A DNA stretch of 64,000 nucleotides from Bacilli bacterium (lineage in GTDB: Bacteria > Bacillota_I > Bacilli_A > RFN20 > CAG-826): assembly GCA_045116995.1 (NCBI GenBank), contig JBGUMU010000034.1, positions 15,854-79,853 of the forward strand. Reading direction: 5' to 3'. Positions within the stretch are counted from its first letter, which is position 1; every line of letters starts with the position of its first letter. Position numbers and translations under genes: made by a program. Shown in pieces: positions 4,014-45,635 of this stretch. The notes beneath the pieces were generated by a model. It had not been told where the DNA came from and did no database searches. It saw only the letters and a list, made by a program, of their open reading frames with translations.

Positions 4014-4088
4014 TGGCTGGGGTGACTGGGATCGAACCAGTGAATGGTGAATTCAGAGTCCACTGCCTTACCGCTTGGCGACACCCCA
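4014..4088 (-). tRNA. tRNA-Gln (anticodon CUG), CCA encoded
   Basis: Reverse complement is TGGGGTGTCGCCAAGCGGTAAGGCAGTGGACTCTGAATTCACCATTCACTGGTTCGATCCCAGTCACCCCAGCCA. It has a U1-A72 acceptor pair, a GCCAAGCGGTAAGGC D-arm like E. coli tRNA-Gln, anticodon loop CTCTGAA, and T-loop TTCGATC. Confidence 0.93.
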
Positions 4089-4345: not shown

Positions 4346-4436
4346 AACGATAAAGATATTAGCACATTCAAAATAAAATGTTCACTGAAATGATAAAAAA
4401 TATTTTTATCCCCTCTATTATTGCTATAATAGTGGC

Positions 4437-4850
4437 ATGAAGATTAGTCTTGATGAATACGACAAAGTCAGAGCGATAATCCCTGGTTTGTTTCAGTTTA
4501 ATGAAAATGAAATGTTCACTCAAGCCGCTTTAGCGGTCACTGATGACGAACTATTCTTTTATGATGATAATGCCCCAACACATATCATGGGCGATGTTTA
4601 TCATTACGCTCTTAAAAAGCGAGTGAAACTCGATGATATCATGATGGTGCTTGATGAAAAGATTACCCATAATAAACAACTAAATACCATGGGTAGATTA
4701 AACTTCGTTATGGAAGAGGAAGATGAATCTTTAATCTTTTATTATTATCTAGCCGATAAAGGTGATGTCACTTCATTCCTTAAAGAGCTCTCTTCTGTCG
4801 GTATCAAAGCTAAGAAAAGAGCAGTGGACTTATCACCAGATAAACTTTAA
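4437..4850 (+). CDS. Hypothetical protein
   Basis: 137-aa ORF in a clean intergenic context. No motif recognised. Confidence 0.55.
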   Translation: MKISLDEYDKVRAIIPGLFQFNENEMFTQAALAVTDDELFFYDDNAPTHIMGDVYHYALKKRVKLDDIMMVLDEKITHNKQLNTMGRLNFVMEEEDESLIFYYYLADKGDVTSFLKELSSVGIKAKKRAVDLSPDKL

Positions 4851-12253: not shown

Positions 12254-12632
12254 GATGATAGATTTTGCATCACATGTCGCCAATAAGAAATGGGACGTTC
12301 TTATCGCTTTCGCTTTGCACAAATAGTATAGAAAAAAATCGTAAAAATAGTCAAACATTATTTTTGTATACAAAGTATAAAACTCGCGAAAAAACAGCAA
12401 ATAAATAAGCTAAAACGGTTTTGAAGGCCGATAACAATGCCACGACATCAAACATTAGATCCAGGATGTGTTTTCCTTCAAATAAACTGTTGAAAAGACT
12501 TATGAAATAAGAATACTGTTTAACCTATCTTTACGTGCATATTTTGAGCGTTATGTGCAAAATTAATTTGCCATTTAAGAAAGAGATATTATAAAATAAC
12601 CTCGTATATACCACTAATTGGTGTTCGTTAAT

Positions 12633-13001
12633 ATGAAAAAAATCAAATTACCTTTAATCATTGCTGGTCTAGTGTTGGATGTTGGTGTTACCATCTTCCT
12701 TTTTGTCATTAGCATCATGATATTAGTTAAGGTTATCCCGGCTGCTACTATCAACGAAGCTATTAATAACTCTCAGAACTGGCCATTAATTCATTACCTA
12801 TTACAAAATCCAACAGTTTATCTCGTTGCGTTTGTCATTCCATTATTTGTTCTCTTGGCATTGAATGTTATTGGCTTAATTATTTACGTCAAGAAAACAA
12901 GTGGTGCCAAACCAGCACAACTCGATGATCTCTCTGAAGAACAAAAAGAAGCTCTCAGACAAGAACTTCTCAAAGATCTCCAAGGCGAGAAAAAAGAATA
13001 A
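12633..13001 (+). CDS. Small membrane protein (3 TM) with charged C-terminal tail
   Basis: MKKIKLPLIIAGLVLDVGVTIFLFVISIMILV... with C-terminal LSEEQKEALRQELLKDLQGEKKE. ATG 12633 is preferred over the upstream TTG. Confidence 0.6.
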   Translation: MKKIKLPLIIAGLVLDVGVTIFLFVISIMILVKVIPAATINEAINNSQNWPLIHYLLQNPTVYLVAFVIPLFVLLALNVIGLIIYVKKTSGAKPAQLDDLSEEQKEALRQELLKDLQGEKKE

Positions 13002-13008
13002 TACACAT

Positions 13009-13027
13009 AGCGCGCAAGCGCTTTTTC
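13009..13027 (+). terminator. Rho-independent terminator
   Basis: AGCGC-GCAA-GCGCT hairpin (13009-13022) followed by TTTTT. Confidence 0.7.
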
Positions 13028-13111
13028 TTTAGTTTCAAGAATTTTATTTTTAATTAAAAATATAAAAAAACTATTGCGCACTTGAAAAATACGTGATAAG
13101 TTATACTCGAG

Positions 13112-13180
13112 TAAAAAGCAAAACCGGAGCAATCCGGCGACGCAAAACTATAGGGTCTTAGTATAAGATAGCCAGCAACC
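13112..13180 (+). promoter_or_regulatory. Candidate c-di-GMP-I (GEMM-I) riboswitch aptamer
   Basis: AAAAAGCAAAACCGGAGCAATCCGGCGACGCAAAACTATAGGGTCTTAGTATAAGATAGCCAGCAACC. It contains GCAAAACC, a CCGGA-GCAA-TCCGG hairpin with a GNRA loop, GACGCAAAAC, a second hairpin (CTAT..CTTA-GTA-TAAG-ATAG), then AGCCAGCAACC. The order and wording resemble the GEMM-I consensus (GGCAAACC-hairpin(GAAA)-GGGACGCAAAGCC-hairpin-AGCxGGGxxACC). Not verified with a covariance model. Confidence 0.45.
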
Positions 13181-13214
13181 TCAATCGATTAACTTTGATT
13201 GAGGTTTTATATTT
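13178..13214 (+). terminator. Leader terminator 1 (overlaps the 3' end of the candidate aptamer)
   Basis: ACCTCAATC (13178-13186) pairs with GATTGAGGT (13197-13205), followed by TTTTATATTT. Confidence 0.6.
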
Positions 13215-13226
13215 CTTAGACAAGAT

Positions 13227-13295
13227 AGCCAGTTGCCTTAGGGGTAATGAAATCCCGCCATTGTAATGGATGATAGGCAACTGGCTTTTAATTTC
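13227..13295 (+). terminator. Leader hairpin 2: 12-bp closing stem around a branched insert, followed by a T-run
   Basis: AGCCAGTTGCCT (13227-13238) pairs perfectly with AGGCAACTGGCT (13275-13286). The interior contains GGG..CCC and CCATT..AATGG mini-hairpins. TTTTAATTT follows. Confidence 0.5.
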
Positions 13296-13354
13296 AAACC
13301 CCATTGGGACAAAATTTAGAAAACAACTACTAACAGGGAAACAAGAAAAAGACT

Positions 13355-14224
13355 ATGTACGATTATGTTTTGGTAAGAAGACGTAGAAGAAGAAAGATCG
13401 CTGCATTAGTCAGTCTCATCTGTTCAATCGGCGTGACTGCATTAATCATCGTTTCATTCCTCGGACAATACACCGGTACTTTTACCGTTTCTTTAACCAA
13501 CTCATCTGTTAGATTGTCACTATCAGAAACTCAAAGTTTCGCTAATCCAACATCTTATCTTCGTATCGATAAGCTCAACTTATTCGAAGAGTCTACGTAT
13601 GTTAACATCAAAGACGAAGGTTTAGATGATGAAACAAAGGCTTATGACTGTGGCCAACACGAAATCAAAATCAAAAATAAAGATGGTAGTGTAACCACAA
13701 AGCAAGTCCTTTCCTATTTCAAGTACACATTCTATGTGGGTAACTTAGGGAGCAAAGCGGCGCAGTACGACATGCAAATTAAATTGTTGGAATGCTCGCA
13801 ATCCACGGATGGTACTAATAGAACTTTGGATGATACTTTAAGAGTTATGATTTATGAAAACGATATCGATGATGATAACAATTCGGGGGTTCATAATGTA
13901 GACGTCTATGCTAAAGAGAACGCTATAGGAAACATTGATATCGATGATGGCAACACAACACGTGAATTTATTTCTTCTCGTCCTAGAAGAGATTATTTAG
14001 GACCACAAAAAGAAGATGAAGATCACAAATTAGCTATTTCTTTCGAGAAATTGGATCTTATTCACACATACAGCCGAGATGGTTTCTTCGCAGGCCAAAT
14101 CCGTAGATATACATTAGTCTCATGGTTAGAAGGAGAGGATAGAGATTCTCTCAACAAACAAGGTACCCCTGTTGGTGCTACTTTAAAATTAGGAGTTGAA
14201 ATAACTGCTTATGAAAATGAATAA
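13355..14224 (+). CDS. Membrane-anchored paralogue P1 of the TasA-like family (degenerate cleavage motif; candidate anchor or base subunit)
   Basis: N-terminal RRRRRRK plus a TM (IAALVSLICSIGVTALIIVSFL), then QYTGTFTVSLT in place of GT-x-A-W-Y/F. It shares the mid-protein LRVMI box and the C-terminal SWLEGEDRD...LKLGVEITA with the paralogues. Confidence 0.6.
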   Translation: MYDYVLVRRRRRRKIAALVSLICSIGVTALIIVSFLGQYTGTFTVSLTNSSVRLSLSETQSFANPTSYLRIDKLNLFEESTYVNIKDEGLDDETKAYDCGQHEIKIKNKDGSVTTKQVLSYFKYTFYVGNLGSKAAQYDMQIKLLECSQSTDGTNRTLDDTLRVMIYENDIDDDNNSGVHNVDVYAKENAIGNIDIDDGNTTREFISSRPRRDYLGPQKEDEDHKLAISFEKLDLIHTYSRDGFFAGQIRRYTLVSWLEGEDRDSLNKQGTPVGATLKLGVEITAYENE

Positions 14225-15173
14225 AATTATAATTCCTGCTGCAATGTTAGCAGTGGGTGTCGCGCTCGTAGGTTCTGTTTCTAGTACCTTAGCGTGGTAT
14301 CAATACTCAACAAAAGCACAAGCAGCGTATATTGGAACCAGCGCCGGAGTTTCTGAAAACTTACAGATTCAAAATAAAAATGGTGATTGGGTTTCAAATT
14401 TATCTTCCTCCGATATCGCAGATTTAATGGAAACTGGTGTTGGTTCTGAACTCACACCAATCTCTCCTGCTATCGAGGGTAATTTAGATGCTACTTCTGC
14501 TCTACCAAATGGCGGTTTCTATAATAGCGTTGAAACTGGCGTTGGTGGTGTTGAAACATATGGTGATCGTAGAGCAAATAATAAGAATTACGTTGAATTC
14601 ACTTTAAAGATTAGATATTTGAAAACAAATTATGCCAATCCAAGCGATCCTTATGGTTATGCAAATAAAGCTTTAAAATTAGTCGATTTAACTATTCTCG
14701 ATGGATCCACAAACGCAGATTTGTACAAAGCTGTTAGAGTTCATATCTCTTCCGCTTCAGGAAACTACTTATTTATGAAGGATTCTACCACCAATGAAAC
14801 AGTCGAAACCGCCACATATGGTAAACTTGATACCGATAGTCGTGATGGTTTAGACACAGGCTGGGCGTATGAATGGGAATCTTCCCCTGAAATCGTTTAT
14901 GGTAAAGATGGATCAATTCAAACAGCGTACAATTCAAACTATTCCGCTGGTTTAAATAAACAAATCGGTGAACTTCCTGCAAGTAATGAAAACGGTTTAG
15001 CCGTGAAAGTTACTATTTGGCTTGAAGGATGGCAAAAATTATCCGGTGTTCCAACCGGTAACGCTGAAGCATCATCTGGTAGTTCTGCTATGTGGGATCC
15101 AACCGTTTATGCCAACAAGCAATTTAAGGTTGGTATGAGATTCCAAGCTGATGATATTCAACAAAATCCATAA
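14211..15173 (+). CDS. SipW-type signal peptide protein, TasA-like paralogue P2
   Basis: MKMNKIIIPAAMLAVGVALVGSVSSTLAWYQYSTKAQA, then AVRVHIS, then TIWLEGWQ...FKVGMRFQA. Overlaps P1 by 14 nt. Confidence 0.65.
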   Translation: MKMNKIIIPAAMLAVGVALVGSVSSTLAWYQYSTKAQAAYIGTSAGVSENLQIQNKNGDWVSNLSSSDIADLMETGVGSELTPISPAIEGNLDATSALPNGGFYNSVETGVGGVETYGDRRANNKNYVEFTLKIRYLKTNYANPSDPYGYANKALKLVDLTILDGSTNADLYKAVRVHISSASGNYLFMKDSTTNETVETATYGKLDTDSRDGLDTGWAYEWESSPEIVYGKDGSIQTAYNSNYSAGLNKQIGELPASNENGLAVKVTIWLEGWQKLSGVPTGNAEASSGSSAMWDPTVYANKQFKVGMRFQADDIQQNP

Positions 15174-15212
15174 TTGATATTTCGTCAAGGATTCGTTTTA
15201 TTTGGAGAATAA

Positions 15213-16370
15213 ATGATGAAATTCAACAAAGTTAAGTTTGTTGTAGCTGCTTTGTCCATGTGCTGCGGAGCCGCCCTCTTGGGTTCGATTTCAAGCACGA
15301 TTGCGTGGTATCAATTTACCACACGTGTATCTGCTGTTATCGTTGGTGCCTCGACAGGTGAGAAGAGCAATTTGAAAATAAGGATTAAAGGGACCAATAA
15401 TTGGAATTCCGACTTGACCTTTCATGATATCAATGAATATCTTGCGTCAGTCAACAAAGGCCAACAAATTACTCCAATTACTTCAGGATTTATGAATGCA
15501 GATGATCCTATTAAAAAAGATAATAACGATCAAATGATTTTTTACCAAAATCCAGGCGAAGAAGATATTGAAAGAGTACCTTATGATAGCCCTTCCTGGA
15601 GAAGAGCGGATGATTCCATGTATGTCTCAATTCCTTTAGAACTTTCATATATCCAAAAAGTCGAAGGAAGTGAACAATTCTTAGAAAAAGATGTGTATAT
15701 CTCTGATTTGCTAATTCAAGAAGATCGCAAAAATAGCATTAATGCTAAAAAAGATTTATCTGAAGCAATCCGTGTACACATCAGCACTTACCAAAGCAAC
15801 GACAAACAAAATACTGAGTTGAATAGATTAATCTCCAAAAATGGTGGAACCATACTGACCGAAGGCCATTTAGATATTGGTGGTGATGGTGATTTAGATG
15901 AATACATCGAAGGTCATCACGGACCAGACTATGGTTTTATTGATGAAGACGATACCGAAAGATACTATGTCACCTATGGTGAAGGTGTCCAAACAGCTTA
16001 CAGTAATCAATATGACGTTCAAGATAATTCATATAAGACACTTAGTGGTCAAACCATTAATGAAAAGGTTTATCCAACAGTAGTCAAATCTATTGATGAT
16101 TCCAACGTTTTAGATGAAGAAAGTTTTGAATATCAAAAAGAAGGCGAAACCGCCAAAACATCTAAATGTATTGGCAAGACAGTAGCCTTTGAAGGTGAGC
16201 AAAATGAAGCTTACCTCAATGTCGTTATGACGATTTGGGTTGAAGGATGGCAACCATTCCCTTCCCCAACGGCCGCTGATCCGAATGCAAAATCACCTAT
16301 CTGGAATGCATCGGACTATATTGGCTCAATGTTTGATGTCGGCATTGAATTTGCCGTACAACAAGACTAA
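15213..16370 (+). CDS. SipW-type signal peptide protein, TasA-like paralogue P3
   Basis: ..ALLGSISSTIAWYQFTTRVSA, then AIRVHIS, then TIWVEGWQ...FDVGIEFAV. Confidence 0.65.
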   Translation: MMKFNKVKFVVAALSMCCGAALLGSISSTIAWYQFTTRVSAVIVGASTGEKSNLKIRIKGTNNWNSDLTFHDINEYLASVNKGQQITPITSGFMNADDPIKKDNNDQMIFYQNPGEEDIERVPYDSPSWRRADDSMYVSIPLELSYIQKVEGSEQFLEKDVYISDLLIQEDRKNSINAKKDLSEAIRVHISTYQSNDKQNTELNRLISKNGGTILTEGHLDIGGDGDLDEYIEGHHGPDYGFIDEDDTERYYVTYGEGVQTAYSNQYDVQDNSYKTLSGQTINEKVYPTVVKSIDDSNVLDEESFEYQKEGETAKTSKCIGKTVAFEGEQNEAYLNVVMTIWVEGWQPFPSPTAADPNAKSPIWNASDYIGSMFDVGIEFAVQQD

Positions 16371-16488
16371 AAAATCCAGATAAACTCCATAAATATTTAT
16401 TAAACTTTTGAATAAGAAAATATCAGCAAAGTCTCATATACATATACACACATGAGGCTTTGCTGGTGTAAAATGAAAGAAAGGGTAT

Positions 16489-17697
16489 ATGAAAAAGACA
16501 ATTAATCCATTAAAACTAGTTATCGGTATTCTCGGCTTATCGTCAGTCGCTGCTTTAGTGGGCTCAATAAGTGGTACCGTTGCGTGGTACGCATATTCAA
16601 CGCGTGCTCTTATTTCATATACCGGCACTTCTGCGCAATCTAGTGCGCAACTTCAAATTGGCTTGAGAGCTACAGAACGTGTTCCGTTGCTTGACGAAGA
16701 TCTTTTAGTTGATGAAGTAATCGAAGAAAATGGTTATTTTTACTACTTCACACATCTCGGCTCAGGCGGTATGCCATCAAGTGTCATTAATAAATATCTC
16801 GGTGGTAGTGGCTTTGCTACAACTACATTGGAGCCTGTATCAACTTATAGTTATGATGGCAGTCAACCATTTGTTTTGAAAAACTGCCCAACAACAAACG
16901 AACCAGAAGAACGCTCAAATGCGCCAACATCAAAGTATGTTAAGATTCCATTTGCGTTCCGTGTGTTCAATACAATTTCAAACGGTCAAACCGTAACAAC
17001 ATCAGTCGCAAATAAAAACATTTATTTAAGCAATGCTGTCGCACAAGTTAGCAATGAAAAGCTTGGTATCGGTGAAGCAATCCGCTTGTTTGTTGATAGA
17101 ACTGATAATTTAAGCGACTATATTTTTAATCCAAACGCTGCAACTGATGGCTCAACCAAAACCGGTGGTGTCTTAGATCTTTCCGGTAATGGATATTTCG
17201 ATTATGACAACAATCCTTCTCATGGTGATATATATCTCCATGAATACATCTATGGCGATTATTCTTATAAGACTGGCTATGGATTAAATAGTGGCTACGT
17301 AAGTCAAGGTGCAAACGATAGCGACTATCATGACATTAACAAAACAGGTGTTGATACCACAGAAGAAGGATTTGATGGTACAACATTTACAGCTAAACAC
17401 CGTAGAGGAACAATGCATTTAGACTACAGCAATGGCGAAGAATTGGAAGACTACGTGACTTTAGGAACGGCTTCTTACCTTGGCAAGAGTTCTGTATTCC
17501 CAACCAAAACCAATGGTGTCCTCTCTGGTAATAACTTTGTTTGTAAAACAGCTGAATCAAACGTTTCCGAAAAGAATATTGGTTCATTTGACTTAACTGT
17601 TTATATAGAAGGCTGGGATCGTGCCACAATCAATCAACATGGTAATGAATATTTCAATCTCGGCTTAACATTCGAAATCGGCGCAACAAATAGCTAA
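16489..17697 (+). CDS. SipW-type signal peptide protein, TasA-like paralogue P4
   Basis: ..ALVGSISGTVAWYAYSTRALI, then AIRLFV, then TVYIEGWD...FNLGLTFEI. Confidence 0.65.
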   Translation: MKKTINPLKLVIGILGLSSVAALVGSISGTVAWYAYSTRALISYTGTSAQSSAQLQIGLRATERVPLLDEDLLVDEVIEENGYFYYFTHLGSGGMPSSVINKYLGGSGFATTTLEPVSTYSYDGSQPFVLKNCPTTNEPEERSNAPTSKYVKIPFAFRVFNTISNGQTVTTSVANKNIYLSNAVAQVSNEKLGIGEAIRLFVDRTDNLSDYIFNPNAATDGSTKTGGVLDLSGNGYFDYDNNPSHGDIYLHEYIYGDYSYKTGYGLNSGYVSQGANDSDYHDINKTGVDTTEEGFDGTTFTAKHRRGTMHLDYSNGEELEDYVTLGTASYLGKSSVFPTKTNGVLSGNNFVCKTAESNVSEKNIGSFDLTVYIEGWDRATINQHGNEYFNLGLTFEIGATNS

Positions 17698-17708
17698 TGA
17701 GGTTTAAC

Positions 17709-18815
17709 ATGAGAAAAAGAAATCTAATCATTTCTCTCATATTAGGAACTGCAGCACTTACTGTGCTGGCTATTCCTGTGGCCACAATTGCATGGTATGC
17801 AAGTAGCGATCGTCTTCAAGTTAATTCAATTGATTTGGATTTAAGAACAGACGAATCTGTTGGCTTACTTATTGGTACAAGCGCTGATGAAGAAGCTTTT
17901 AAAGAAAAACTTGAAACAAAAGACTTAAAAAAAGTTGGTGAGTTTGTTCCTACTTCCAGTATGTTCCAAGATAGTTGGATGAGCACTAAAAGTGATTTAC
18001 CATTATTCTATGATTCAACATCCGATGTTGCTCCAGATGGCATTCCATCTCTAGAAGTTAGTAATAAAGGCTTTTTCCAACAAAAGTTATATCTTTTAAA
18101 CAACATTGATTATTATGTCACACTAGATACTGAGCAATCCTTTGTCACAAGTGACAAAAACTCTAATCATTTACGCGCGCAGGCTCTTGTGGGTAAAGTC
18201 GGTTCATTAACTGTTGATGAAATCGAAGAAAAATTAAACAACTTAGAGAACAGTATTAGATTCTCCATCCTTGTCAATACTCCAAATTACTACAAATACT
18301 TCATTGTTAATCCAAACAAAAAGGAAAACGAAGTCACATATTACGCTGGTAGATTAGACAACAATGGTGATGGTTATTTCGATACTTTTCCAGCTCTTGA
18401 TAATAACAACCAAGTAATTGAAAAAGAGATTATCTATGGTGAAATCGAAAATCGTAATCAAATCGCTTATGACAATCCTCAAAGCGATACATTAGCTCCT
18501 ATTGAAGATTATGATCCGTTTAGACACAATTTCTTTGGTAACTCATTCGAAGGAAAGAGCAAAGAAACTGCCTACACTTACAATGAACAAAATTCACTCC
18601 AAGCGGGTGTTAAATATAAAGAAGAACCATCTATCTCATTAGATGAAATCGCTTCCGATGACAATCCATTATTAATCCCATGCTATAACGGTGTTCCTAC
18701 CGAAATAGTGTTATCCATCTATTTAGAGGGTTGGGATTTAGATTGTTACAACTCCACAATGGGAGCGAGCTTCAATGCACAATTATCTTTTAAATTATTA
18801 AGGGGGATTATCTAA
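17709..18815 (+). CDS. SipW-type signal peptide protein, TasA-like paralogue P5
   Basis: MRKRNLIISLILGTAALTVLAIPVATIAWYASSDRLQV, then SIRFSI, then SIYLEGWD...FNAQLSFKL. ATG 17709 (GAGG 6 nt upstream) is preferred over ATG 17697. Confidence 0.65.
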   Translation: MRKRNLIISLILGTAALTVLAIPVATIAWYASSDRLQVNSIDLDLRTDESVGLLIGTSADEEAFKEKLETKDLKKVGEFVPTSSMFQDSWMSTKSDLPLFYDSTSDVAPDGIPSLEVSNKGFFQQKLYLLNNIDYYVTLDTEQSFVTSDKNSNHLRAQALVGKVGSLTVDEIEEKLNNLENSIRFSILVNTPNYYKYFIVNPNKKENEVTYYAGRLDNNGDGYFDTFPALDNNNQVIEKEIIYGEIENRNQIAYDNPQSDTLAPIEDYDPFRHNFFGNSFEGKSKETAYTYNEQNSLQAGVKYKEEPSISLDEIASDDNPLLIPCYNGVPTEIVLSIYLEGWDLDCYNSTMGASFNAQLSFKLLRGII

Positions 18816-18816
18816 T

Positions 18817-20340
18817 ATGGCTTCTTATTTCGAATATTTAAGGAAAATGTTCCTTTCAGTCCTACAACACATCGGTACATTCCTTTATAAGGCATTTATC
18901 TCACCATGGACTGATTTAGGCCGTAACTTTGCAGTCTATAACGACTACATGGGTGAACACTGGGCAACATTCGGTCCAGTCGGCTGGATTTTCTGGGTTA
19001 TTTTCCTATTATTATTCATCGGCTTAATCGCTGGTCTATTATTCTTACTTATCGTCTTCTTCCGTAAGTATGTACGTTTCGTGCGTAAAGAATTGGACAA
19101 AGAAGAATTATCTAGACAAGTTGATAGACTTAACTATGAGTTATTCCAAGCCATCCAAGAAAAAGATAAAATCCTCAACCTTAAAGTTGGTTATATGGGT
19201 TTACGTGGTGGTGAATCTCAATTAGATAAAGAAAGCCAAGAAATCGTTGAAGAAGTCTCCTCTAGATTCCCAAAACTTATCCATGTTGATAACAAATATA
19301 GAGGTTCTAACATGGATATTCCAAATAGACCAAACTTATCCCTCGAAGAATTATGTAATGCCTTCCGTAACTTCGCTGCATCTCAATTGAAGTTATATTA
19401 TAGGGAAGACGTTATTAAACAATTATTTGCCGGTATGGCCGCCTCTAAGTTAATCATCTTAGAAGGTATCTCTGGTACAGGTAAAACATCCTTAGCGTTC
19501 GCTCTTGGTAAATTCTTCAATTTCGATAGTGCGATTATTCCAGTTCAACCATCCTGGAAAGATAGAAGTGAATTATTAGGTTACTATAACGAATTCACTA
19601 AGAAATTCAATGAAACTGAATTCTTAAGAGCGTTATACACAACCACCTATAGACAAGATTTAGACGTCATCGTCCTCGATGAAATGAACTTAGCCCGTAT
19701 TGAATACTACTTCGCTGAATTCTTATCCATCATGGAAATGAGAGATCCTAACGATTGGGTCATCGATTTAATCCCAGCCCCAATGGCTAATGACCCAGTT
19801 AACTTAAAAGAAGGTAAACTCTTAATTCCTCAAAACGTCATCTTCTTTGGTACCGCCAATAACGATGATAGTACATTCACTATCTCTGATAAGGTCTATG
19901 ACCGTGCGGTCTCTATCTTCTTTGATGATAAGGGCAGACCATTTGAATGCGCTCCTCAAGAAGCCATGAACGTTCCATATAGTCAAATTAGAAAACTATA
20001 TGATGATGCGATTACCCAATTCCCAATCTCTAGAGATATGTCCGACAAGTTCGAACAACTCGATAACTTTGTCATTAAGAAATTCAAACTCGCCTTTGGT
20101 AACCGTATCTTAAAACAATTAGAAACATTTATCCCAGTCTACGTGGCCTGTGGTGGTAAAGAAGTCGATGGTTATGACTTCATCTTCACTAATAAGGTCT
20201 TAAAGAAATTCGAATCTCTTAACATCGCCTTCTTAAAAGACGAATTAAAAGAACTCGATGCTCAATTAGACAAAATGTATGGCAAGGGTAACTTCAAAAT
20301 GGCCCATAGCTATATCGATAACTTAATTAAAAACAACTAA
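18817..20340 (+). CDS. Membrane-anchored McrB-family (AAA_5-type) AAA+ NTPase
   Basis: N-terminal hydrophobic hairpin (GWIFWVIFLLLFIGLIAGLLFLLIVFF). Walker A LEGISGTGKTS (19465-19491). VIVLDEMNLARIEYYFAEFLSIME can be compared with McrB DEINRANLSKVFGE. FFGTANNDDSTFTISDKVYDRA can be compared with McrB GxMNTADRS...D.AxRRRF. Confidence 0.8.
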   Translation: MASYFEYLRKMFLSVLQHIGTFLYKAFISPWTDLGRNFAVYNDYMGEHWATFGPVGWIFWVIFLLLFIGLIAGLLFLLIVFFRKYVRFVRKELDKEELSRQVDRLNYELFQAIQEKDKILNLKVGYMGLRGGESQLDKESQEIVEEVSSRFPKLIHVDNKYRGSNMDIPNRPNLSLEELCNAFRNFAASQLKLYYREDVIKQLFAGMAASKLIILEGISGTGKTSLAFALGKFFNFDSAIIPVQPSWKDRSELLGYYNEFTKKFNETEFLRALYTTTYRQDLDVIVLDEMNLARIEYYFAEFLSIMEMRDPNDWVIDLIPAPMANDPVNLKEGKLLIPQNVIFFGTANNDDSTFTISDKVYDRAVSIFFDDKGRPFECAPQEAMNVPYSQIRKLYDDAITQFPISRDMSDKFEQLDNFVIKKFKLAFGNRILKQLETFIPVYVACGGKEVDGYDFIFTNKVLKKFESLNIAFLKDELKELDAQLDKMYGKGNFKMAHSYIDNLIKNN

Positions 20341-20350
20341 TTAAAACACC

Positions 20351-22597
20351 ATGAAAAAAACGAGTAACAGCAATAAGCAGATCAATAGAGCCTACCATAG
20401 TGCGCTTAAGAAAATCATCAAAGGTTCCCACGAAAAGGAAATCTATGATGCTTTAAGCGCGGGTAAGAACTCTTATTTAAGACTTGATCGTTTAGCGTCT
20501 TCCTCGTTTGATAAGAGCTGGATTGAAGTGATTGAAGGCTGTATCTTCGATTTAGGCGAAATCATCGCTAATCCAAGACAACACACTAAAATCACTGGCA
20601 ACTTAACACCAGTTGAACTCGCTAAAAAGGTCACATCAGAATCTGTCCAACACTTAGCGAGCCATACTCAATATATTAAAGAAGTCGATGAATACGGAAA
20701 CGTCATCCCTTCTAAAATCTTATCCATGAGTAGTGATGATGATTTACATACTTATGAAAATAGATTTATCGCTACATTCGTAAGAAGATTATTCTTATTC
20801 ATTTCTAAACGTTATGAATTCGTTTCTAAATTCGCCGAATTACATAACGAAGAAATCCTATACTTTAAAAACAAATCCATCGTCGATGGAGCGGAAGTAG
20901 AAATTGAAACAAAGATTAAAGTCTCTTATAAGAACGAAAACGAAGAAACTAGAATCAACAGTGGCTACGTTGAAAGAATCAAACAAACTAGAGACTATAT
21001 TTCCTATTTCTATAACTCTCCATTTATGAAACAAATGAAGAATGAAAAGGATGTTAGAAATCCAATCGTTCAAACAAACATCATTAGAAAGAACCCTAAA
21101 TATAGACACTGCTACGAAGTGTATAGATTCATCGAAACCTATGACCGTTTAGGCGTGAACTATAAGGTCGATGAAAACTATTCCATGTTCAATAACGAAG
21201 AGTTGGCGGAACTCAATAGAACATTATTCGCTAACTACGTGACCTTAAGAGGTAATGATGGTAGTAGAGAAAAGAAAGTTAACACTAAAGTCTATAAGCC
21301 ACGTATCTTAACAAGCTTAGAAGATGAATCATTTATATATGGTCCATTACTTGAAGGTCCAATTTCTTTTGCACGTGTGGATGATGGTTATCAAGCCTAT
21401 TTAGATAGCAAGATTAAAAAAGACTTACCACTCCATCCAACTAAGAAAGAAAAAGAATATTACGAAGATGAATACGCTGCGAAGAAAGAAAATCAACAAG
21501 ATCAAAAAGCTAAAGCCGATTTATTAAAACGCAGACAAAAAGAAGTTAACGCTTTTGAAAAGAAAGTGAAGAATATCTTAGCAAAACGTGAAGAAGCGAG
21601 ATTAAAACTCATCGAAGCGGAAAAGAACGCCATTAGACAAGAAGAAGAAGACTTAGTCAACGCCATGAGAAGAGAAATCATTGCTGCTTCGCAAAAAGAC
21701 GTTACTGAGATTGTTAACGCTAATAATGGTGGCAAACCATCTAAGAAAGCCGCTAAAGAAGAAGTTAAGGAATATAATCCAACAGTTTCATTTAATGACG
21801 CTGCGGATGAGATTTGGCCACAATTAAATAATCCAACTCCATTACCAGTGGAAGAAAAGCCAGCACCTCAACCAGTTAAACCAGTAATAGTGGAACAACC
21901 AGTTCAAGCAGAATCTGCCCCTGAAGCTAAACCAGCGCCAGCACCTGCTAAAGTTGAAAAGGTCTACATACCAACTGTTAGCTTCAACGAAGCCGCAGAC
22001 GAAATCTGGCCACAACTTAATAATCCAACCCCAATGGCTAAACCAGTGGAAGAAGTTAAAGTGGCCCCAGCCCCTGCTAAGAAGGCTAAAGTGGTTAAAC
22101 CTGCTCCAGTCGTGGAACAAGCACCAACTGAACAAAAACCAGTGGAAGCTAAACCAGCCCCACAACCAGTCAGAGTGGAAAAGGTTTATGTCCCAACAGT
22201 GAGCTTCAATGATGCTGCTGATGAGATTTGGCCACAATTAAATAATCCAAAACCACTTCCTAAAGAAGAGCCTAAACCAGCGCCAGTGCAAAAGCCTGCT
22301 CCTAAAAAAACAGAACCAGCGCCAGCGCCTGCCAAGGAACCTGTTAAGGAAGAAGCAAAGCCAAAAGGCAAACCAATTAAAAAGTATTTCTATAGAAGTG
22401 ATGGTACAGTGGCCATCATCTATAAGAAAGATAAGGCTCATAAGGAAGAAAAACCTGCTCTTACAAAGGAAGAGCCTAAGAAAGAAGAACCTGTTAAGGA
22501 ACAGCCAAAGGCTGAACCTAAAAAGGAAGAAAAGAAAGAAAACAAACCACAAAATGTGGTGAAGAGTAAAAAGACCCGTAAGAAATTTAGAAAGTAA
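20351..22597 (+). CDS. McrC-position partner protein: N-terminal globular domain (DUF2357/McrC-N-like guess), coiled-coil, Pro/Ala/Lys-rich tail with three conserved 19-aa motifs
   Basis: 748 aa with no TM. TYENRFIATFVRRLFLF resembles the ENRF box I associate with McrC/DUF2357 partners (from memory). There is a K/E-rich coiled-coil around aa 380-460. PTVSFN(D/E)AADEIWPQLNNP occurs three times in a PAPxPxK-type linker. No PD-(D/E)xK nuclease motif is recognisable by eye. Confidence 0.5.
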   Translation: MKKTSNSNKQINRAYHSALKKIIKGSHEKEIYDALSAGKNSYLRLDRLASSSFDKSWIEVIEGCIFDLGEIIANPRQHTKITGNLTPVELAKKVTSESVQHLASHTQYIKEVDEYGNVIPSKILSMSSDDDLHTYENRFIATFVRRLFLFISKRYEFVSKFAELHNEEILYFKNKSIVDGAEVEIETKIKVSYKNENEETRINSGYVERIKQTRDYISYFYNSPFMKQMKNEKDVRNPIVQTNIIRKNPKYRHCYEVYRFIETYDRLGVNYKVDENYSMFNNEELAELNRTLFANYVTLRGNDGSREKKVNTKVYKPRILTSLEDESFIYGPLLEGPISFARVDDGYQAYLDSKIKKDLPLHPTKKEKEYYEDEYAAKKENQQDQKAKADLLKRRQKEVNAFEKKVKNILAKREEARLKLIEAEKNAIRQEEEDLVNAMRREIIAASQKDVTEIVNANNGGKPSKKAAKEEVKEYNPTVSFNDAADEIWPQLNNPTPLPVEEKPAPQPVKPVIVEQPVQAESAPEAKPAPAPAKVEKVYIPTVSFNEAADEIWPQLNNPTPMAKPVEEVKVAPAPAKKAKVVKPAPVVEQAPTEQKPVEAKPAPQPVRVEKVYVPTVSFNDAADEIWPQLNNPKPLPKEEPKPAPVQKPAPKKTEPAPAPAKEPVKEEAKPKGKPIKKYFYRSDGTVAIIYKKDKAHKEEKPALTKEEPKKEEPVKEQPKAEPKKEEKKENKPQNVVKSKKTRKKFRK
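21779..22249 (+). repeat. Three in-frame copies of a 57-nt unit encoding PTVSFN(D/E)AADEIWPQLNNP
   Basis: Copies at 21779-21835, 21971-22027 and 22193-22249. The peptide is identical except for one D/E, while the DNA differs at many synonymous sites. Confidence 0.9.
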
Positions 22598-22600
22598 TTT

Positions 22601-23479
22601 ATGAGCGAAGTAGTTAAAGAAAAACGCGTCAAGAAACCAAAAAGTAAGGCCAGAAAAATCGTGGAATGGATCCTTACTGGTATTTTCCTCGTGATTTTCG
22701 GTGTCGTCATGGCCGCTCAAATTGATGGTATGGTCCATAAGAATGATCACTATGGTCAACAAATTAGATTTGGCTATGGTACCTTCATGGTTAAGACCGA
22801 TTCTATGAAACCAGTGTACGGCATTGATACTGCTTTAATTACTTACTTAGAAGACGCTGATAAAATCTACGACCGTTTCCAAAAGGGTGAAACTGTCGAT
22901 ATCACATTCGTCCATGTTCCAGTGGCTAATAACGAATATACCTCTCCTAGAGATAATCCAGAATTAACCGTTAGAACTAATGCTAGTAGTGATAAGCAAG
23001 TGGACGGCATCCCTATGACCCATAGAGTGAGAGAAATCCACATCAATGAAAGTGTCGCTAAAGGTAAAGGTCGTTACACATTCATCACCGCTGGTATCAA
23101 TACCAGAAGTGAATGGATGGGTTGGCAAGAAGGTCAACCAGATATGGTTATTAACCAATATCAAGCGATCACAGAAAAAGAACTATTAGGTAGAGTGGTG
23201 GTTAACTCTCCATTCTTAGGTGGTGTCTTCTCATTTGTGAGTTCTGTATTTGGTTTATTAATCTTATTACTCATCCCAGCATTTTATTTAGTCATCACTA
23301 GTGTGATTGATATATTTAAGGCTTATAAAGAGCCTGAAGAAGCTAAAGAAGGAGCAGGAGCCACACCAAATAGTGGTGGTACCGTTACTCTTTCCGAAGC
23401 GGACAAAAAGAGACTTAAAGAGCAACTATTAGAAGAAATGATTGCCAAGAAGAAAGGAGAAAGCAATGAAAACAAGTAG
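22601..23479 (+). CDS. sipW: SipW-like (S26B, ER/archaeal-type) signal peptidase I with an enlarged extracytoplasmic domain
   Basis: N-terminal TM. VKTDSMKPVY can be compared with SipW SGSMEP (Ser codon 22802-22804). QKGETVDITF, then MTHRVREI compared with VTHRIVDI (catalytic His). A C-terminal second TM (FGLLILLLIPAFYLVITSVIDIF) as in SipW. The GDNN Asp box reads AGINT. Confidence 0.75.
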   Translation: MSEVVKEKRVKKPKSKARKIVEWILTGIFLVIFGVVMAAQIDGMVHKNDHYGQQIRFGYGTFMVKTDSMKPVYGIDTALITYLEDADKIYDRFQKGETVDITFVHVPVANNEYTSPRDNPELTVRTNASSDKQVDGIPMTHRVREIHINESVAKGKGRYTFITAGINTRSEWMGWQEGQPDMVINQYQAITEKELLGRVVVNSPFLGGVFSFVSSVFGLLILLLIPAFYLVITSVIDIFKAYKEPEEAKEGAGATPNSGGTVTLSEADKKRLKEQLLEEMIAKKKGESNENK

Positions 23480-25007
23480 AGGTCGATTAACTGCAGTTAT
23501 CATTACTGGTATCCTTCTCATCGTCGCCTTTGTCCTCGCGGGTATGGCGATGATTGGTCATGTCTTCGGTGATAACACCCCATTAGCGAATATCATGAAC
23601 GCTTCAGCCATTGGTATGACTGTTTTATTCGTTAGTAGTGTTTATCTTTTAGTTAGTAATCTTTCCATGATTAAGACTTTACAAGATGATAACGAATATA
23701 ACTTAGGTGTTAGAAGTGCCTTTAATAACATGTATGCCTTCCAAAAACGTGTGGAAGTCCTTTCTAGATTAAATAAAATCACCAAGAGACAAGAACACAT
23801 TATCGCCTTTACATTCTCCTCTCTTGTTGTTTCTCAAAACGTTAATAGAAACCATGAAATCTATTTAATCAACAATCACATCGCTAACTTCTTAAATGAT
23901 TTACCAACAAAGATTAACGCTAAGAAGAGAGACTTTGTTTATGCCTTCTCTCGTGGTTCTTTCTTAATCTACTGTGCAAAACAAAATGAACAATCCATTC
24001 AAAACATCTGCGAAATCATCGCTAAAGATATTTATGACTTTGGTGAACAAAACTGCCGTCATATCTGGGTCCAACCATTCTTCGGTGTCACCCGTGTCTA
24101 TGATAGTGAACTTTTAACTCACCAAATTGAAAACGCATTATTAGCTAGAGATAATTCTGAAAGAAACTTTGAAACAGTCACTTATTATCAAGAAACATTC
24201 CGTAAAAGTGTGGCCGCTAACGACATTGAAGAATTAACTCAAGCTTTAGAAAATAAAGAATTCGTTGTCTACTATCAACCAAAGTTTGACTTAGCTAAAA
24301 GACAATTTATTTCTTCAGAAGCTTTAATTAGATGGAACTCCAAGAAGTACGGCTTATTAGCGCCTACTAAGTTCTTAAATAAAGCCGAAGCTATTGGTTT
24401 AATCCATGATATTGATATCTATGTCTTAAGACAAGTTTGTGAAGATTTAAATGAACTTATTAGAAGAGGTAGAAGAGTCTTACCAGTCTCCGTTAACTTC
24501 TCCTTATATGAATTCTATAGTGCGAACTTCTTAGATACCATCATGGGTATCTTAGATGAATTCCATGTTCCAACAAATTTAATTGAAATTGAAATTACAG
24601 AAGCGACATCACAAGCTAACCAATTCTTATCCATCTCCATTATTAAGAAACTTAAAGAAAACGGTATTCGAGTCTTAATGGATGACTTTGGTATTGGTTT
24701 CTCTAACGTCGGTAACTTAAAGAAGATTCCATTCGACGTTGTTAAGATTGATAAATCATTTATTGATGGCATTGTTAACGACACTAAATCACGTGAAATC
24801 GTGAGATTCTTAATTGGTCTTTGTAAGATCAACGGTATGGAAGTCGTTGCCGAAGGTGTTGATAACAAAGAACAAGTTGAAATATTAAAGAAGGCGAAGT
24901 GCGATACAATTCAAGGTTTCTATTATTCTGAAGCTCTTGAAAAGAAAGCTTTCGAAAGATTCTTAGATAATAACCCATTTGAAAAGAAGGAGGGCGTTAA
25001 AGCATGA
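23466..25007 (+). CDS. Membrane-bound EAL-domain c-di-GMP phosphodiesterase with degenerate GGDEF-like middle domain
   Basis: Two N-terminal TMs. The EAL set appears complete: YYQPKF, SEALIRW, SVNFS, EIEITE, MDDFGIGFSN, VKIDKSF, VAEGVD, IQGFYYS. The GGDEF position reads SRGSF. ATG 23466 (AAAGGAG RBS) overlaps the sipW end by 14 nt. Confidence 0.85.
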   Translation: MKTSRGRLTAVIITGILLIVAFVLAGMAMIGHVFGDNTPLANIMNASAIGMTVLFVSSVYLLVSNLSMIKTLQDDNEYNLGVRSAFNNMYAFQKRVEVLSRLNKITKRQEHIIAFTFSSLVVSQNVNRNHEIYLINNHIANFLNDLPTKINAKKRDFVYAFSRGSFLIYCAKQNEQSIQNICEIIAKDIYDFGEQNCRHIWVQPFFGVTRVYDSELLTHQIENALLARDNSERNFETVTYYQETFRKSVAANDIEELTQALENKEFVVYYQPKFDLAKRQFISSEALIRWNSKKYGLLAPTKFLNKAEAIGLIHDIDIYVLRQVCEDLNELIRRGRRVLPVSVNFSLYEFYSANFLDTIMGILDEFHVPTNLIEIEITEATSQANQFLSISIIKKLKENGIRVLMDDFGIGFSNVGNLKKIPFDVVKIDKSFIDGIVNDTKSREIVRFLIGLCKINGMEVVAEGVDNKEQVEILKKAKCDTIQGFYYSEALEKKAFERFLDNNPFEKKEGVKA

Positions 25008-25747
25008 TCATGATTATTGGTAGCCAACATGATGATATCCTCTATTTCGAAAGTGTTATCACTAACAAAAGAGAAGAACTCATCATGGGCAAATTCAAAG
25101 TGACCATTGGTACCATCTTTAACCAAGCGGTCATGTTAGTGGATCAAGTTAAATCTAACTACTTAAGTAGCGCTCTTACTTTATATTTGATTGAAAAATA
25201 CTTCGTCATCCTTGTTTTAGTGGTGGGCCGTTGTGTGGCTTACACGAAAGACTTAAAACCATTAGACATCGTTATCTCTAAGCATGTCGTCTTAGGGGAC
25301 GTTGACCAAGTTAATGAAGATAACGTTAAATACGGACAAATCCCAGGCTTTGAACAAGTCTTTGATGCCTCTGAAGACGTTGTCTCCTATATTGAAAGTG
25401 CTTTTGAAAAGAGAACATACTCTGTCTTTAAAGAAGCTAACTTCATTTCCACATCTGTGGACTACCATAAGAAAGAACAAATCTATGATATCCATGAATT
25501 TGATCATATCTTAGGCTATGACACTAATGTGGTCTTTGACACCAATACCGGTGGTGTTGCTGTCGCTTGTAACTTAACTAAAGTGCCTTTCGTCTCGATT
25601 AAAGTCGTGGAAAGATACTTAGAAAAGAATAGTGATGTCAATACATACTTAAAAGCGATGAAAGAATATGTGAATATCGGTAAAGCTGTTGTTACCTGTA
25701 TCGGTGATATTGGCCGTAACGAAATCATCACAGAAGGAGGTAAGTAA
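25004..25747 (+). CDS. MTA/SAH-nucleosidase (PNP_UDP_1) homologue with degenerate active site
   Basis: Collinear with E. coli MtnN: MIMIIGSQHDD vs MKIGIIGAMEEE; LKPLDIVIS vs LKVGDIVVS; KYGQIPGFEQVF vs EYGQLPGCPAGF; VPFVSIKVVERY vs VPFVVVRAISDV. The catalytic or ligand positions (E12, SGIGK, TGSAGG, EME, SD197) read D, QVKSN, VGRCVA, DTN, VE. The ATGA overlap with the upstream stop is at 25004-25007. Confidence 0.6.
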   Translation: MIMIIGSQHDDILYFESVITNKREELIMGKFKVTIGTIFNQAVMLVDQVKSNYLSSALTLYLIEKYFVILVLVVGRCVAYTKDLKPLDIVISKHVVLGDVDQVNEDNVKYGQIPGFEQVFDASEDVVSYIESAFEKRTYSVFKEANFISTSVDYHKKEQIYDIHEFDHILGYDTNVVFDTNTGGVAVACNLTKVPFVSIKVVERYLEKNSDVNTYLKAMKEYVNIGKAVVTCIGDIGRNEIITEGGK

Positions 25748-25748
25748 T

Positions 25749-28700: not shown

Positions 28701-28814
28701 GCTGATGCTGATGTCTTACTACAAGGCTTCTACTTCTTCCGTCCATTAGAAAAGCAAGCTTTAATTGAAGCCTTAAGAGGAACGAATAAATATAAGAAAG
28801 CTGATGAAGAATAA
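25749..28814 (+). CDS. Large membrane-anchored signalling protein: two degenerate GGDEF-like domains, a GAF-like segment, a Cys motif, and a C-terminal degenerate EAL domain (probable c-di-GMP receptor)
   Basis: Two N-terminal TMs. The first GGDEF-like block has GEDNK in the signature position. The second is YLLLLRIDNLEQLVEEHGSEGTITILRDFSKRV...YYTNQFLAMLF. CYKTMYGLDAPCKDCP is C-x11-C-x2-C. The EAL-like end reads LQPMV, GAELLLR, CDQYTGRY (for DDFGTGYS), VKISR (for KID), VGVEN (for EGVE), LQGFYF. ATG 25749 (GGAGG RBS) is preferred over the 25689 extension. Confidence 0.7.
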   Translation: MAFYNRNRSIKIFFRFVTIFPIVFLNVLVIVMTLLTFFYARTDNFAFFLAILIFGGVMIILYIVQTVYIMTQFRKVFINGLYGVTVSNFENIARNENDFREYPSKQYIEINALNEHVDTLRKSLLGATIIPSNNDFDDIELDYIDKEKNLITFESFKRELENIIFKSQNYRNIIIETYYEFEEEGLTKKNIDYVLKVLKDNFFDYESPLYVLGEDNKSVYLYLPRIDSLSKIREQLETCMRSASISKRLTEGITPLTAHFSVVCYPYSDVPELIPDLRYAKRQGNDIFFYLPNRLNTLKNNAILRYSTNLNSMSKIIAPLSTMRFGSAYTKENTKIIQETIKTTAQYFGINYAGIIALDAVNKRYVIAYQANDDEINPLSHDGTVNQALISIMDETKDDNGSYYFSIRNHANNALGRHLDRIGLESGFYYVIKSNDVVQGVIYFFNKNKELKFDSYIQESMLMLCTRISSFLISEKRDVEIESSFDEIDAILKVADFSTYRVSADDFTLLNGSQTMKNLFPEIKYGEKCYKTMYGLDAPCKDCPLLTGNKKMVKYGRDNYETSLLLSDHHNIYRVLSIKNIYSHKSHGRYNQDLLINSFHTLIENLEDIYAMNGKGYLLLLRIDNLEQLVEEHGSEGTITILRDFSKRVKKAHRGLENIYYYTNQFLAMLFYEYGQTDILDECEKIYAIAKNVDKSADYVLDITFLPVSYPRVYPNATSLIKQADVFSTRGHYDVNKDFIYFDESNYSRSANREEYILSIIKKAFSDKTYEINLQPMVNAGDKQIYGAELLLRISDDYRNVAMRTDEVVNVAAKHNQIGIISHALLDFTASLYKEYGAMFFSSLGFRRFGLNTDYSFFTDKNFAKDIKKYIESLKLPKHFIAFEIPENDVSTHIDEFKQIGKVLRDLNIVLVCDQYTGRYISVEILKEIGFDEVKISRNLVNHIDSDNQRYNALKALLQLIRRFNMKASIVGVENIDQYLLIKEADADVLLQGFYFFRPLEKQALIEALRGTNKYKKADEE

Positions 28815-45557: not shown

Positions 45558-45635
45558 GGCGGGTGTGGTGAAGAGGCCTAACACACCTGGCTGTGAACCA
45601 GGCATTCGCCAGTTCGAATCTGGTCACTCGCCCCA
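45558..45635 (+). tRNA. tRNA-His (anticodon GUG) with encoded G-1 and CCA
   Basis: G-1 then the GCGGGTG acceptor pairing with CACTCGC. C73 lies opposite G-1. Anticodon stem-loop CCTGG-CTGTGAA-CCAGG. T-loop TTCGAAT. 3' CCA present. Confidence 0.93.

Follow-up and report, generated by a model that had tools for sequence, protein, structure and literature searches.

The window analysed here, a 64,000-nucleotide stretch of contig JBGUMU010000034.1 from an uncultured gut or rumen Bacilli bacterium, carries from position 13107 onward the RNA leader of a 15.5-kb operon, whose co-directional and tightly packed genes run from 13355 to 28814 (Table 1; positions are those of the window). On its covariance-model matches, the leader is a genuine riboswitch of cyclic di-guanosine monophosphate (c-di-GMP) class I (c-di-GMP-I, GEMM-I, RF01051). 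We consider it probable that it works as an A20-variant transcriptional ON switch, in which one aptamer 5' half is closed by either of two 3' strands (copies A and B) and two intrinsic terminators (T1 and T2) stand in series. The large operon that it precedes could well encode surface fibres, a function that we find plausible, if just short of probable.

Table 1. Features of the riboswitch leader and of the operon that follows it.
Feature	Position	Strand	Description or evidence
Promoter	13074-13102	+	-35 TTGCGC 13074-13079; 17-nt spacer; extended -10 TG 13094-13095 and TAAGTT 13097-13102
Aptamer 5' half	13107-13160	+	Rfam c-di-GMP-I alignments; compensatory changes in first hairpin
P1 5' strand, GAG	13109-13111	+	Within aptamer 5' half
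First hairpin, GNRA loop GCAA	13118-13143	+	Within aptamer 5' half
A47 equivalent	13144	+	Rfam alignments
Second hairpin 5' strand	AACU 13146-13149; GGGUCUU 13153-13159	+	Rfam alignments
Copy A, first alternative aptamer 3' half, AAGAUAGCCAGCAACCUC	13165-13182	+	Short-form Rfam match, 48.0 bits
C92 equivalent and P1 3' strand of copy A	C13179; CUC 13180-13182	+	
Terminator T1	13177-13217	+	12-bp stem 13177-13188 with 13195-13206, then U-rich tract UUAUAUUUCU; independent terminator scan
Copy B, second alternative aptamer 3' half, AAGAUAGCCAGUUGCCUUAG	13222-13241	+	Long-form Rfam match, 56.5 bits
C92 equivalent and P1 3' strand of copy B	C13236; CUU(A)G (CUU 13237-13239)	+	
Terminator T2	13227-13295	+	12-bp outer stem 13227-13238 with 13275-13286, then UUUUAAUUU; minimum free energy (MFE) folds
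Conserved box UUGGGACAAA	13304-13313	+	TGGGACA invariant in 40/40 leaders, flanks variable
Five paralogous beta-sandwich protein genes	13355-18815	+	Gene 1 membrane-anchored; genes 2-5 with signal sequence
AAA_5-type ATPase	18817-20340	+	
748-aa Lys/Pro/Ala-rich protein	20351-22597	+	Three PTVSFN(D/E)AADEIWPQLNNP repeats
Divergent SipW/archaeal-type signal peptidase I, 292 aa	22601-23479	+	Motifs DSMKP and THRV; family profile matches
Membrane EAL phosphodiesterase, canonical	23442-25007	+	EALIR motif; EAL E 5.9e-67
PNP_UDP_1-like protein (nucleoside phosphorylase superfamily)	25004-25747	+	Between the two EAL genes; E 1.1e-8
1041-aa membrane protein, C-terminal EAL	25689-28814	+	EAL E 3e-31

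One aptamer 5' half with two closing strands

At gathering thresholds, a cmscan search of the whole window returned a single riboswitch match, to RF01051 at 13107-13183 on the plus strand, which covers model positions 1-87 of 87 with 48.0 bits against a curated gathering score of 35 bits (the short form). With laxer filters, applied to 13000-13400, the model aligned over the same full length to 13107-13240 (+) with 56.5 bits and an E-value of 1.4e-10 (the long form), and the c-di-GMP-I call of the preliminary description, made from the letters of the sequence, is thus borne out. The two alignments have the 5' half at 13107-13160 in common and differ in the copy of a duplicated word that closes the second hairpin: copy A does so in the short form; in the long form copy B does, and copy A and T1 then sit as an insert in the second hairpin. 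The aptamer words GCAAAACC, CCGGA-GCAA-TCCGG and GACGCAAAAC were all found where they had been placed earlier, and the word duplication that had been pointed out is real, since the exact 11-mer AAGATAGCCAG occurs within the window only at 13165-13175 and 13222-13232 (0.05 exact matches expected; two matches reached in none of 100 shuffles), with a similarity that reaches 14 of 18 bases. A tandem riboswitch made of two complete aptamers is ruled out, as both Rfam alignments use the same 13107-13160; no second full aptamer was found in 13000-13400 at E-values up to 10, and there is a single 5' half.

Under closer comparison of the two copies, two basal pairs of the second helix are mismatched in copy A (AGCCAGCAACC; A-C and A-A), and the same two positions are A-U pairs in copy B (AGCCAGUUGCC) by way of AGUU 13231-13234. 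In the window, copy B is itself a fully competent aptamer 3' half and the higher-scoring of the two. The P1 partner for GAG 13109-13111 is short and available in either copy; in an Rfam variant model with an explicit P1, CGAG pairs with CUUAG in one relative (L023). We also observed that UCGA 13107-13110 can pair with UCGA 13185-13188 in the 5' arm of T1, giving an alternative 4-bp P1 in the MFE fold at a transcript length ending at 13195; this pairing is seen just in the window and its closest relatives, and the other leaders do not have it. The leader shows the two-hairpin architecture joined by GACGCAAA, with covariation, and of the ligand contacts (Vc2 numbering) the A47 and C92 equivalents are present and G20 is replaced by A13117. 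Taken together, score, architecture, covariation and context place the leader in the c-di-GMP-I class, with the G20 site in its known A variant.

The complete leader, 13107-13360, folds to -70.5 kcal/mol (z = -6.06 against shuffles), and its MFE structure holds T1 together with the branched hairpin 13227-13286. T1, which the terminator scan confirmed, has a 5' arm that overlaps the C92/P1 tail of copy A, in keeping with the earlier remark that the 3' ACC of the aptamer runs into the first terminator; its stem alone is worth -15.4 kcal/mol. The second, branched terminator that had also been described was recovered in the MFE fold with its 12-bp stem and U-run. T2 alone reaches -28.3 kcal/mol and uses copy B as its 5' arm; its interior is a three-way junction composed of hairpin a (13241-13256), hairpin b (13258-13269) and the junction AUGAU.

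A different role for the repeated word had been suggested in the preliminary description, namely that of an anti-terminator of T2, through pairing of its copy A (AGCCAG) with CUGGCU 13281-13286. Although the complementarity exists (6 + 3 bp), the duplex amounts to -12.6 kcal/mol as against -23.2 kcal/mol for copy B, which is also nearer. Unconstrained MFE folding of the window and its relatives did not produce this pairing in any case; it is absent in the window even with copy B barred from pairing, and relatives that have no copy A still have T2. We regard this mechanism as very improbable; the evidence points instead to the 5' strand GGGUCUU 13153-13159 as the element that pairs with either copy.

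Conservation and origin of the nested module

Contigs of relatives were fetched via homologues of the first operon gene (289 aa), of which there are 380, all unannotated; the operon is syntenic. A c-di-GMP-I match that exceeds the gathering score was found in each of the 16 homologous loci scanned, always in the corresponding position of a leader some 250-370 nucleotides long. A metagenome scan for the T2 3' arm yielded 29 further distinct leaders with a GEMM-I core, each preceding the same gene (ATGTACGA...), and a scan of a genome collection gave one close relative only, L001, whose leader is nearly identical to that of the window and thus useless for covariation. Conservation was read from 40 distinct leaders (alignment A3) and from 11 homology-derived ones (alignment A1). 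Since the 29 metagenomic leaders were picked by their T2 3'-arm pattern, the invariance of TGGATGATAGGC.ACTGG in A3 is partly given by construction; the same motif is invariant also in the 11 leaders of A1.

In the aptamer, the first hairpin shows compensatory changes at two pairs and is capped by GCAA, GUGA, GAAA, GUAA or GCGA, and of the cells of the 40-leader alignment 98% are paired for the second hairpin and 98.3% for the long-form structure. Among the homology-derived leaders, the 18 that carry copy A have it without a single difference; of all 32 leaders with the nested arrangement, 30 have this sequence and the other two (L090 and L123) depart from it at one base. Most of copy A falls outside any terminator stem, yet it is near-invariant. 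The 5' part of copy B is variable (AAGAUA, UAGACA, GAGAUU, AAGACA) with its pairing to GGGUCUU retained, and the AGA at 13223-13225, beyond the T2 stem, is invariant in all 40 leaders. Closure by copy B scores 57.3 bits in L003 (long form) and 58 bits in L009, where it is the only closure. The upper stem of T1 shows compensatory changes, and GGUUUUAUAU is conserved. T2 is kept in all 40 leaders, and its inner hairpins have undergone some compensatory changes; the dual-terminator platform, two intrinsic terminators after one aptamer, is kept in the 32 nested ones.

Nine leaders (L009, L031, L039, L055, L099, L101, L120, L130 and L136) have neither copy A nor T1, and their aptamer closes directly on the copy-B sequence that is the T2 5' arm. 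In these simple relatives the aptamer 3' strand CCAGUUGCC serves at the same time as the terminator 5' arm, and so it does in a paralogous L009 riboswitch, whose terminator is a plain hairpin; by its layout, aptamer followed by T2, this is a textbook transcriptional ON design. On a neighbour-joining tree of the downstream protein, simple leaders are basal and the nested leaders, including that of the window, form one derived clade. The module seems to have been lost secondarily in L099, L130 and L136, and their neighbour on the tree, L090, has a copy A, GCCAGTAACC, that is intermediate between B and A. Because the simple form is basal, the nested form is confined to one derived clade and L090 is intermediate, this comparison indicates that the module of copy A and T1 arose by duplication of the aptamer 3' strand in the second-hairpin loop of an ancestral aptamer-T2 switch; it has stayed under strong constraint ever since its insertion.

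The same comparison bears on the promoter. The pattern TTGC(A/G)C-17-TG-n-TAAGTT is conserved in the 11 homologous leaders, with TTG, TG and T-A-n-n-n-T invariant, as is an A-tract upstream of the -35 element (13065-13069), and the placement of the conserved -35 and -10 elements would put the transcription start at about 13108-13110, at the P1 strand. The TTGAAA-14-TATACT promoter proposed earlier is rejected: its hexamers are present at 13082-13087 and 13102-13107, but in columns that vary among these 11 relatives, while the former pattern is kept.

Downstream of the aptamer, the T2 interior (13239-13274) contains near-invariant unpaired bases, a conservation beyond what a terminator needs. 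The box UUGGGACAAA lies about 15 nucleotides past the T2 U-run and about 45 nucleotides ahead of the start codon; no convincing pairing partner or known motif was found for it, and a permissive Rfam scan of 13000-13400 gave nothing credible for either the T2 interior or the box. That the three-way junction and the invariant box sense a second input, be it the ligand of a terminator-embedded aptamer or a protein, strikes us as far-fetched. A long-range pairing of GUCUU (13155-13159) with GGGAC, drawn by RNAalifold, is unsupported, both sides being invariant and thus free of covariation, and apparent mismatches in the T2 outer stem are an artefact of gap placement by MAFFT (GGCAACUGGC versus GGCACUGGC) with no biology behind them.

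Two serial checkpoints, their alternatives and the ligand

Given that the 5' arm of each terminator overlaps the ligand-dependent tail of one copy, we read the leader as two serial ligand-dependent checkpoints served by one sensor core. Copy A, whose C92/P1 tail is the foot of T1, would be transcribed first, and the ligand-bound short aptamer would block T1. Once the polymerase had moved past T1, copy B would emerge and T1 could fold harmlessly, freeing copy A; the 5' strand would then switch its pairing to copy B, and the aptamer so formed would be a better one that holds T1 within its second hairpin. T2, whose 5' arm is copy B, would be blocked only by the ligand-bound long aptamer, and its 36-nucleotide branched interior with two small hairpins may delay this second decision, which would suit a slowly binding ligand. 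With no ligand, transcripts would end at T1 or T2; at high c-di-GMP, a SipW-type secreted-fibre system and EAL phosphodiesterases would be switched on, resulting in negative feedback. Membership of the class, the two closures and two terminators, their conservation, the thermodynamic pathway and the insertion in evolution are shown by the sequences and folds; which ligand is sensed, the ON polarity and the passage from copy A to copy B are inferred.

Stepwise MFE folds of the window trace the following pathway. A transcript ending at 13183 forms the short aptamer with P1, and at 13206 T1 displaces P1; at 13232-13240 the 5' strand moves to copy B, AACU:AGUU forms and T1 becomes nested in the extended second hairpin, and at 13286 T2 strips AGCCAGUUGCCU from the aptamer. 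Divergent relatives show the same folding order, and at the point where copy B is present the long form is the MFE structure for 26 out of 32 nested leaders. In nearest-neighbour terms, T1 is held open at a cost of about 12.4 kcal/mol and T2, via the long aptamer, at about 13.4 kcal/mol, an opening cost of about 12-13 kcal/mol that is comparable to the order of tight (pM-nM) ligand binding plus tertiary contacts. The strongest version of the proposal, in which a single core is used twice per round of transcription, with copy A to pass T1 and by strand exchange with copy B to pass T2, is one that we take seriously without quite favouring it. If true, one sensor would read c-di-GMP at two time points, a kinetic double-check that would give a tandem-like digital response with half the RNA.

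Several points weigh against the proposal. Ligand binding and termination are, for this leader, predictions from sequence and folding. Exchange of the 3' strand requires that the ligand pocket (C92) be rebuilt. Kinetics pose the main difficulty: complexes of the Vc2 type last extremely long, and a long-lived, ligand-locked short form would leave copy B free, so that T2 could fire. One may speculate that the loss of affinity brought by A20 makes the complex dynamic enough for exchange. The complementarity of the post-T1 linker to copy A is not above that of shuffled AU-rich controls (mean z -1.0); an "anti-A" linker driving strand exchange, which can be drawn in every nested leader in differing registers, is with this z value a weak possibility at most. 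In addition, copies A and B and their partners are nearly invariant, so that covariation cannot tell the two closures apart, and in some lineages copy B lacks the conserved bulged A (GAGAUUGCC) and the short form scores equally well or better. Finally, T2 of Bc1, the only studied dual-terminator c-di-GMP riboswitch, is unresponsive to ligand (PMC11218506), and A20 makes the physiological ligand ambiguous (PMC6140456).

Rival designs were weighed as well. In one, only the long aptamer (copy B) and T2 would work, and copy A with T1 would be a structured insert or, at most, a decoy that lowers leaky read-through. In its favour, the window and L003 both score higher with the long form, MFE folds accommodate T1 well within the long-form hairpin, basal lineages manage without the module, and one subclade has apparently lost it again. 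However, copy A does not vary, apart from the single base in L090 and L123, in leaders whose proteins share as little as about 46% identity, and this holds also for bases that the design would place in an internal loop. With its C92 and P1 equivalents retained, copy A reaches 42-48 bits by itself, the U-tract of T1 is conserved, and the part of copy A that the T1 5' arm overlaps is precisely its ligand-dependent tail. We consider this design unlikely. Still less probable, in our view, is one in which the ligand acts through the short aptamer (copy A) and T1 only, T2 being constitutive or otherwise regulated as in Bc1 and copy B a relic: a T2 of -28 kcal/mol with its U-run would block the operon with no evident relief, the AGA of copy B outside T2 is invariant, the pairing to GGGUCUU survives GAU-to-GAC and AAG-to-GAG changes, and simple relatives regulate via T2 alone. 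It does have a precedent in Bc1 from Bacillus thuringiensis, in which T1 unfolds with c-di-GMP and T2 stays functional (PMC11218506); moreover, the 5' part of copy B drifts in several lineages, and the short form has the best score in L017.

Regarding the ligand, the base at the Vc2 G20 contact (model position 11), on which the preliminary description was silent, is an A in 35 of the 40 leaders; A20 is ancestral on the tree and changed to G twice in orthologous leaders without other change. This is a known natural variation in which nanomolar c-di-GMP binding is kept: in Vc2, A20 lowers c-di-GMP affinity about thousand-fold, and the G20A variant binds c-di-GMP at 53 nM and cyclic GMP-AMP (cGAMP) at 120 nM (PMC6140456). 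Both ligands are also bound by a natural Firmicute A20 aptamer, Cbe 1-2 of Clostridium beijerinckii (PMC6140456). We accordingly predict, by analogy, a weaker binding of c-di-GMP and a possible binding of cGAMP here, and in vitro the aptamer may quite possibly bind both. As the physiological signal we favour c-di-GMP over cGAMP with fair confidence, because of the EAL domains in the operon, the alternation of A and G among orthologues and the lack of a cyclase in the window.

The competing view, that the riboswitch is of GEMM-Ib type and responds to 3',3'-cGAMP, builds on the prevalent and ancestral A at 13117: an A at this site marks c-AMP-GMP-leaning aptamers (PMC9481103) and is a hallmark of cGAMP-binding GEMM-I variants (PMC6140456, PMC9481103). 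We hold it to be improbable, since the A20 aptamers above bind both ligands (PMC6140456), orthologous leaders swap A for G with nothing else changed, and the operon encodes c-di-GMP phosphodiesterase domains. Moreover, no GGDEF or CD-NTase motifs were found in the 64-kb window of this incomplete genome, and a GGDEF protein adjoining the homologous operon of L009 (6919-8010) has no Hypr Ser/Thr signature. Where PleD has D344, this protein carries Asn (GHMVGNKVL) in place of either the canonical Asp or the Ser/Thr of Hypr enzymes, and is thus uninformative as a clue to cGAMP.

The regulated operon and comparison with known systems

All five paralogues at the head of the operon share RVHI, LD..G.G..D and C-terminal WLEG(W/E)D/Q motifs, and genes 2-5 have T(L/I/V)AWY after the N-terminal signal sequence. 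Searches of Pfam, NCBIfam and PDB sequences with the five proteins gave nothing above threshold. AlphaFold models of paralogues (predicted local distance difference test scores of 84 and 82) are beta-sandwiches, the first 48 residues of the gene 2 model being disordered. In Foldseek they weakly match the TasA fibre (8aur_A; probability 0.97, template-modelling (TM) scores 0.31/0.37), a Sulfolobus thread (7pnb_A; probability 0.57, TM score 0.36) and the bundling pilus 7ueg, and the matches with the best TM score or the highest probability are filament subunits. For the signal peptidase, the SipW model NF046067 is matched by each of 26 sampled family members, with a best E-value of 9.5e-12, and TIGR02228, the model of archaeal-type signal peptidase I, by 19 of them, in every case below the curated cut-offs; two homologues of 74-75% identity are named "signal peptidase I" at the Joint Genome Institute, and a PDB sequence-profile search with the peptidase gave nothing above threshold.

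EAL domains are c-di-GMP phosphodiesterases, and the operon does end, as had been noticed, in an EAL and a degenerate EAL gene, both with profile matches (Table 1). The metal site of the 1041-aa protein is partly degenerate, with ELLLR retained and DDFGTG replaced by CDQYTG. An EAL gene follows the peptidase gene also in L003 and L009. It would make biological sense for a high c-di-GMP level to turn on a phosphodiesterase together with a system of secreted fibres or adhesins. The operon has the look of a SipW-dependent system for surface fibres in which EAL feedback is included, and the riboswitch would link c-di-GMP signalling to a set of genes that is wholly without annotation and is widespread among Bacilli of the rumen and gut (at least 380 homologues of the first gene and at least 800 of the peptidase).

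Among the other proteins, the 748-aa protein has near-identical repeats split by Pro/Ala/Lys-rich linkers, a highly basic C-terminus and no family match, and the PNP_UDP_1-like gene could relate to turnover of nucleotide products. Directly upstream of the riboswitch promoter lies a gene for a small hydrophobic protein (12618-13001; 127 aa, no family), followed by a terminator at 13009-13022 found in the terminator scan, and a gene of 111-228 aa occupies that spot in every homologous locus that reaches far enough. Further c-di-GMP-I riboswitches were found in L006 (624-701, +; 60.3 bits) and L009 (3974-4048, -; 62.4 bits), with A and G at position 20, respectively; they precede neighbouring operons with very large unannotated proteins (1373-1486 aa). 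The persistent A at G20 beside G20 paralogues in related genomes makes a case for tuning of affinity or ligand choice between operons. L003 also has a lysine riboswitch (4385-4554, -; 97.8 bits) upstream of an ABC amino-acid transporter operon, and the window has tRNA genes at 4017-4088 (-) and 45559-45632 (+) with Rfam scores of 57.6 and 57.4 bits.

Set beside the tapA-sipW-tasA operons of Bacillus and the archaeal donor-strand filaments, the operon has in common a SipW-type peptidase with several secreted beta-sandwich paralogues, an aromatic residue shortly past the predicted cleavage site and folds that weakly resemble those of the TasA fibre, Sulfolobus threads and bundling pili. Unlike these systems, it has no sequence-family match, includes an additional AAA ATPase, a repeat protein and EAL proteins, reaches TM scores below 0.4 and is known from its genes alone.

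With typical RF01051 members (Vibrio cholerae Vc2; the Bacillus thuringiensis ON switch Bc2), the leader shares the two-hairpin aptamer, GNRA loop, GACGCAAA junction and A47/C92 equivalents, a 5' untranslated region site with an intrinsic-terminator platform, the control of surface or adhesion genes and a full-length match above gathering. It differs from them in the A at G20, the very short second hairpin of the short form, the two closing strands and the two terminators. GEMM-Ib and other A20 variants (Geobacter Gs1761, Cbe 1-2 and Vc2 G20A) likewise have an adenine reading the alpha base of the ligand, and Cbe 1-2, like the present leader, has a Firmicute host. In contrast to these variants, the operon has EAL genes, orthologues alternate between A and G, and no sign of cGAMP signalling was found here.

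Tandem riboswitches are the known route to sharper, switch-like responses, and the c-di-GMP-I class is the one most often found in tandem. Its doublets and triplets, such as Bc3-5, resemble the present leader in their serial ligand-dependent terminators, from which a sharper, more digital response to the same ligand is expected (PMC4759541, PMC9481103); they repeat the whole aptamer, whereas here the 3' strand and terminator only are duplicated and the 5' half is shared. A review of tandem riboswitches and a 2025 survey list repeats of complete aptamers only. For dual terminators after one c-di-GMP-I aptamer there is one published precedent, Bc1 of the Bacillus cereus group, an arrangement that its authors call rarely seen; it too has two rho-independent terminators a few tens of bases apart, with T1 tied to the aptamer (PMC11218506). 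However, T2 of Bc1 is reported to be ligand-independent and to mask T1 (PMC11218506), whereas the T2 of the window has as its 5' arm a second copy of the aptamer 3' half, which would give it a ligand linkage of its own, and forms a three-way junction. Our search of the literature on dual and tandem terminators in riboswitches found nothing closer, and the searchable literature thus has no description of a closing strand whose duplication links a second terminator to one and the same aptamer. The leader thus suggests an economical route in which the closing strand and terminator alone are duplicated and the sensor core is shared, an idea that the natural before-and-after series of simple, intermediate and nested leaders makes directly testable and that may help to explain puzzling dual-terminator cases such as Bc1.

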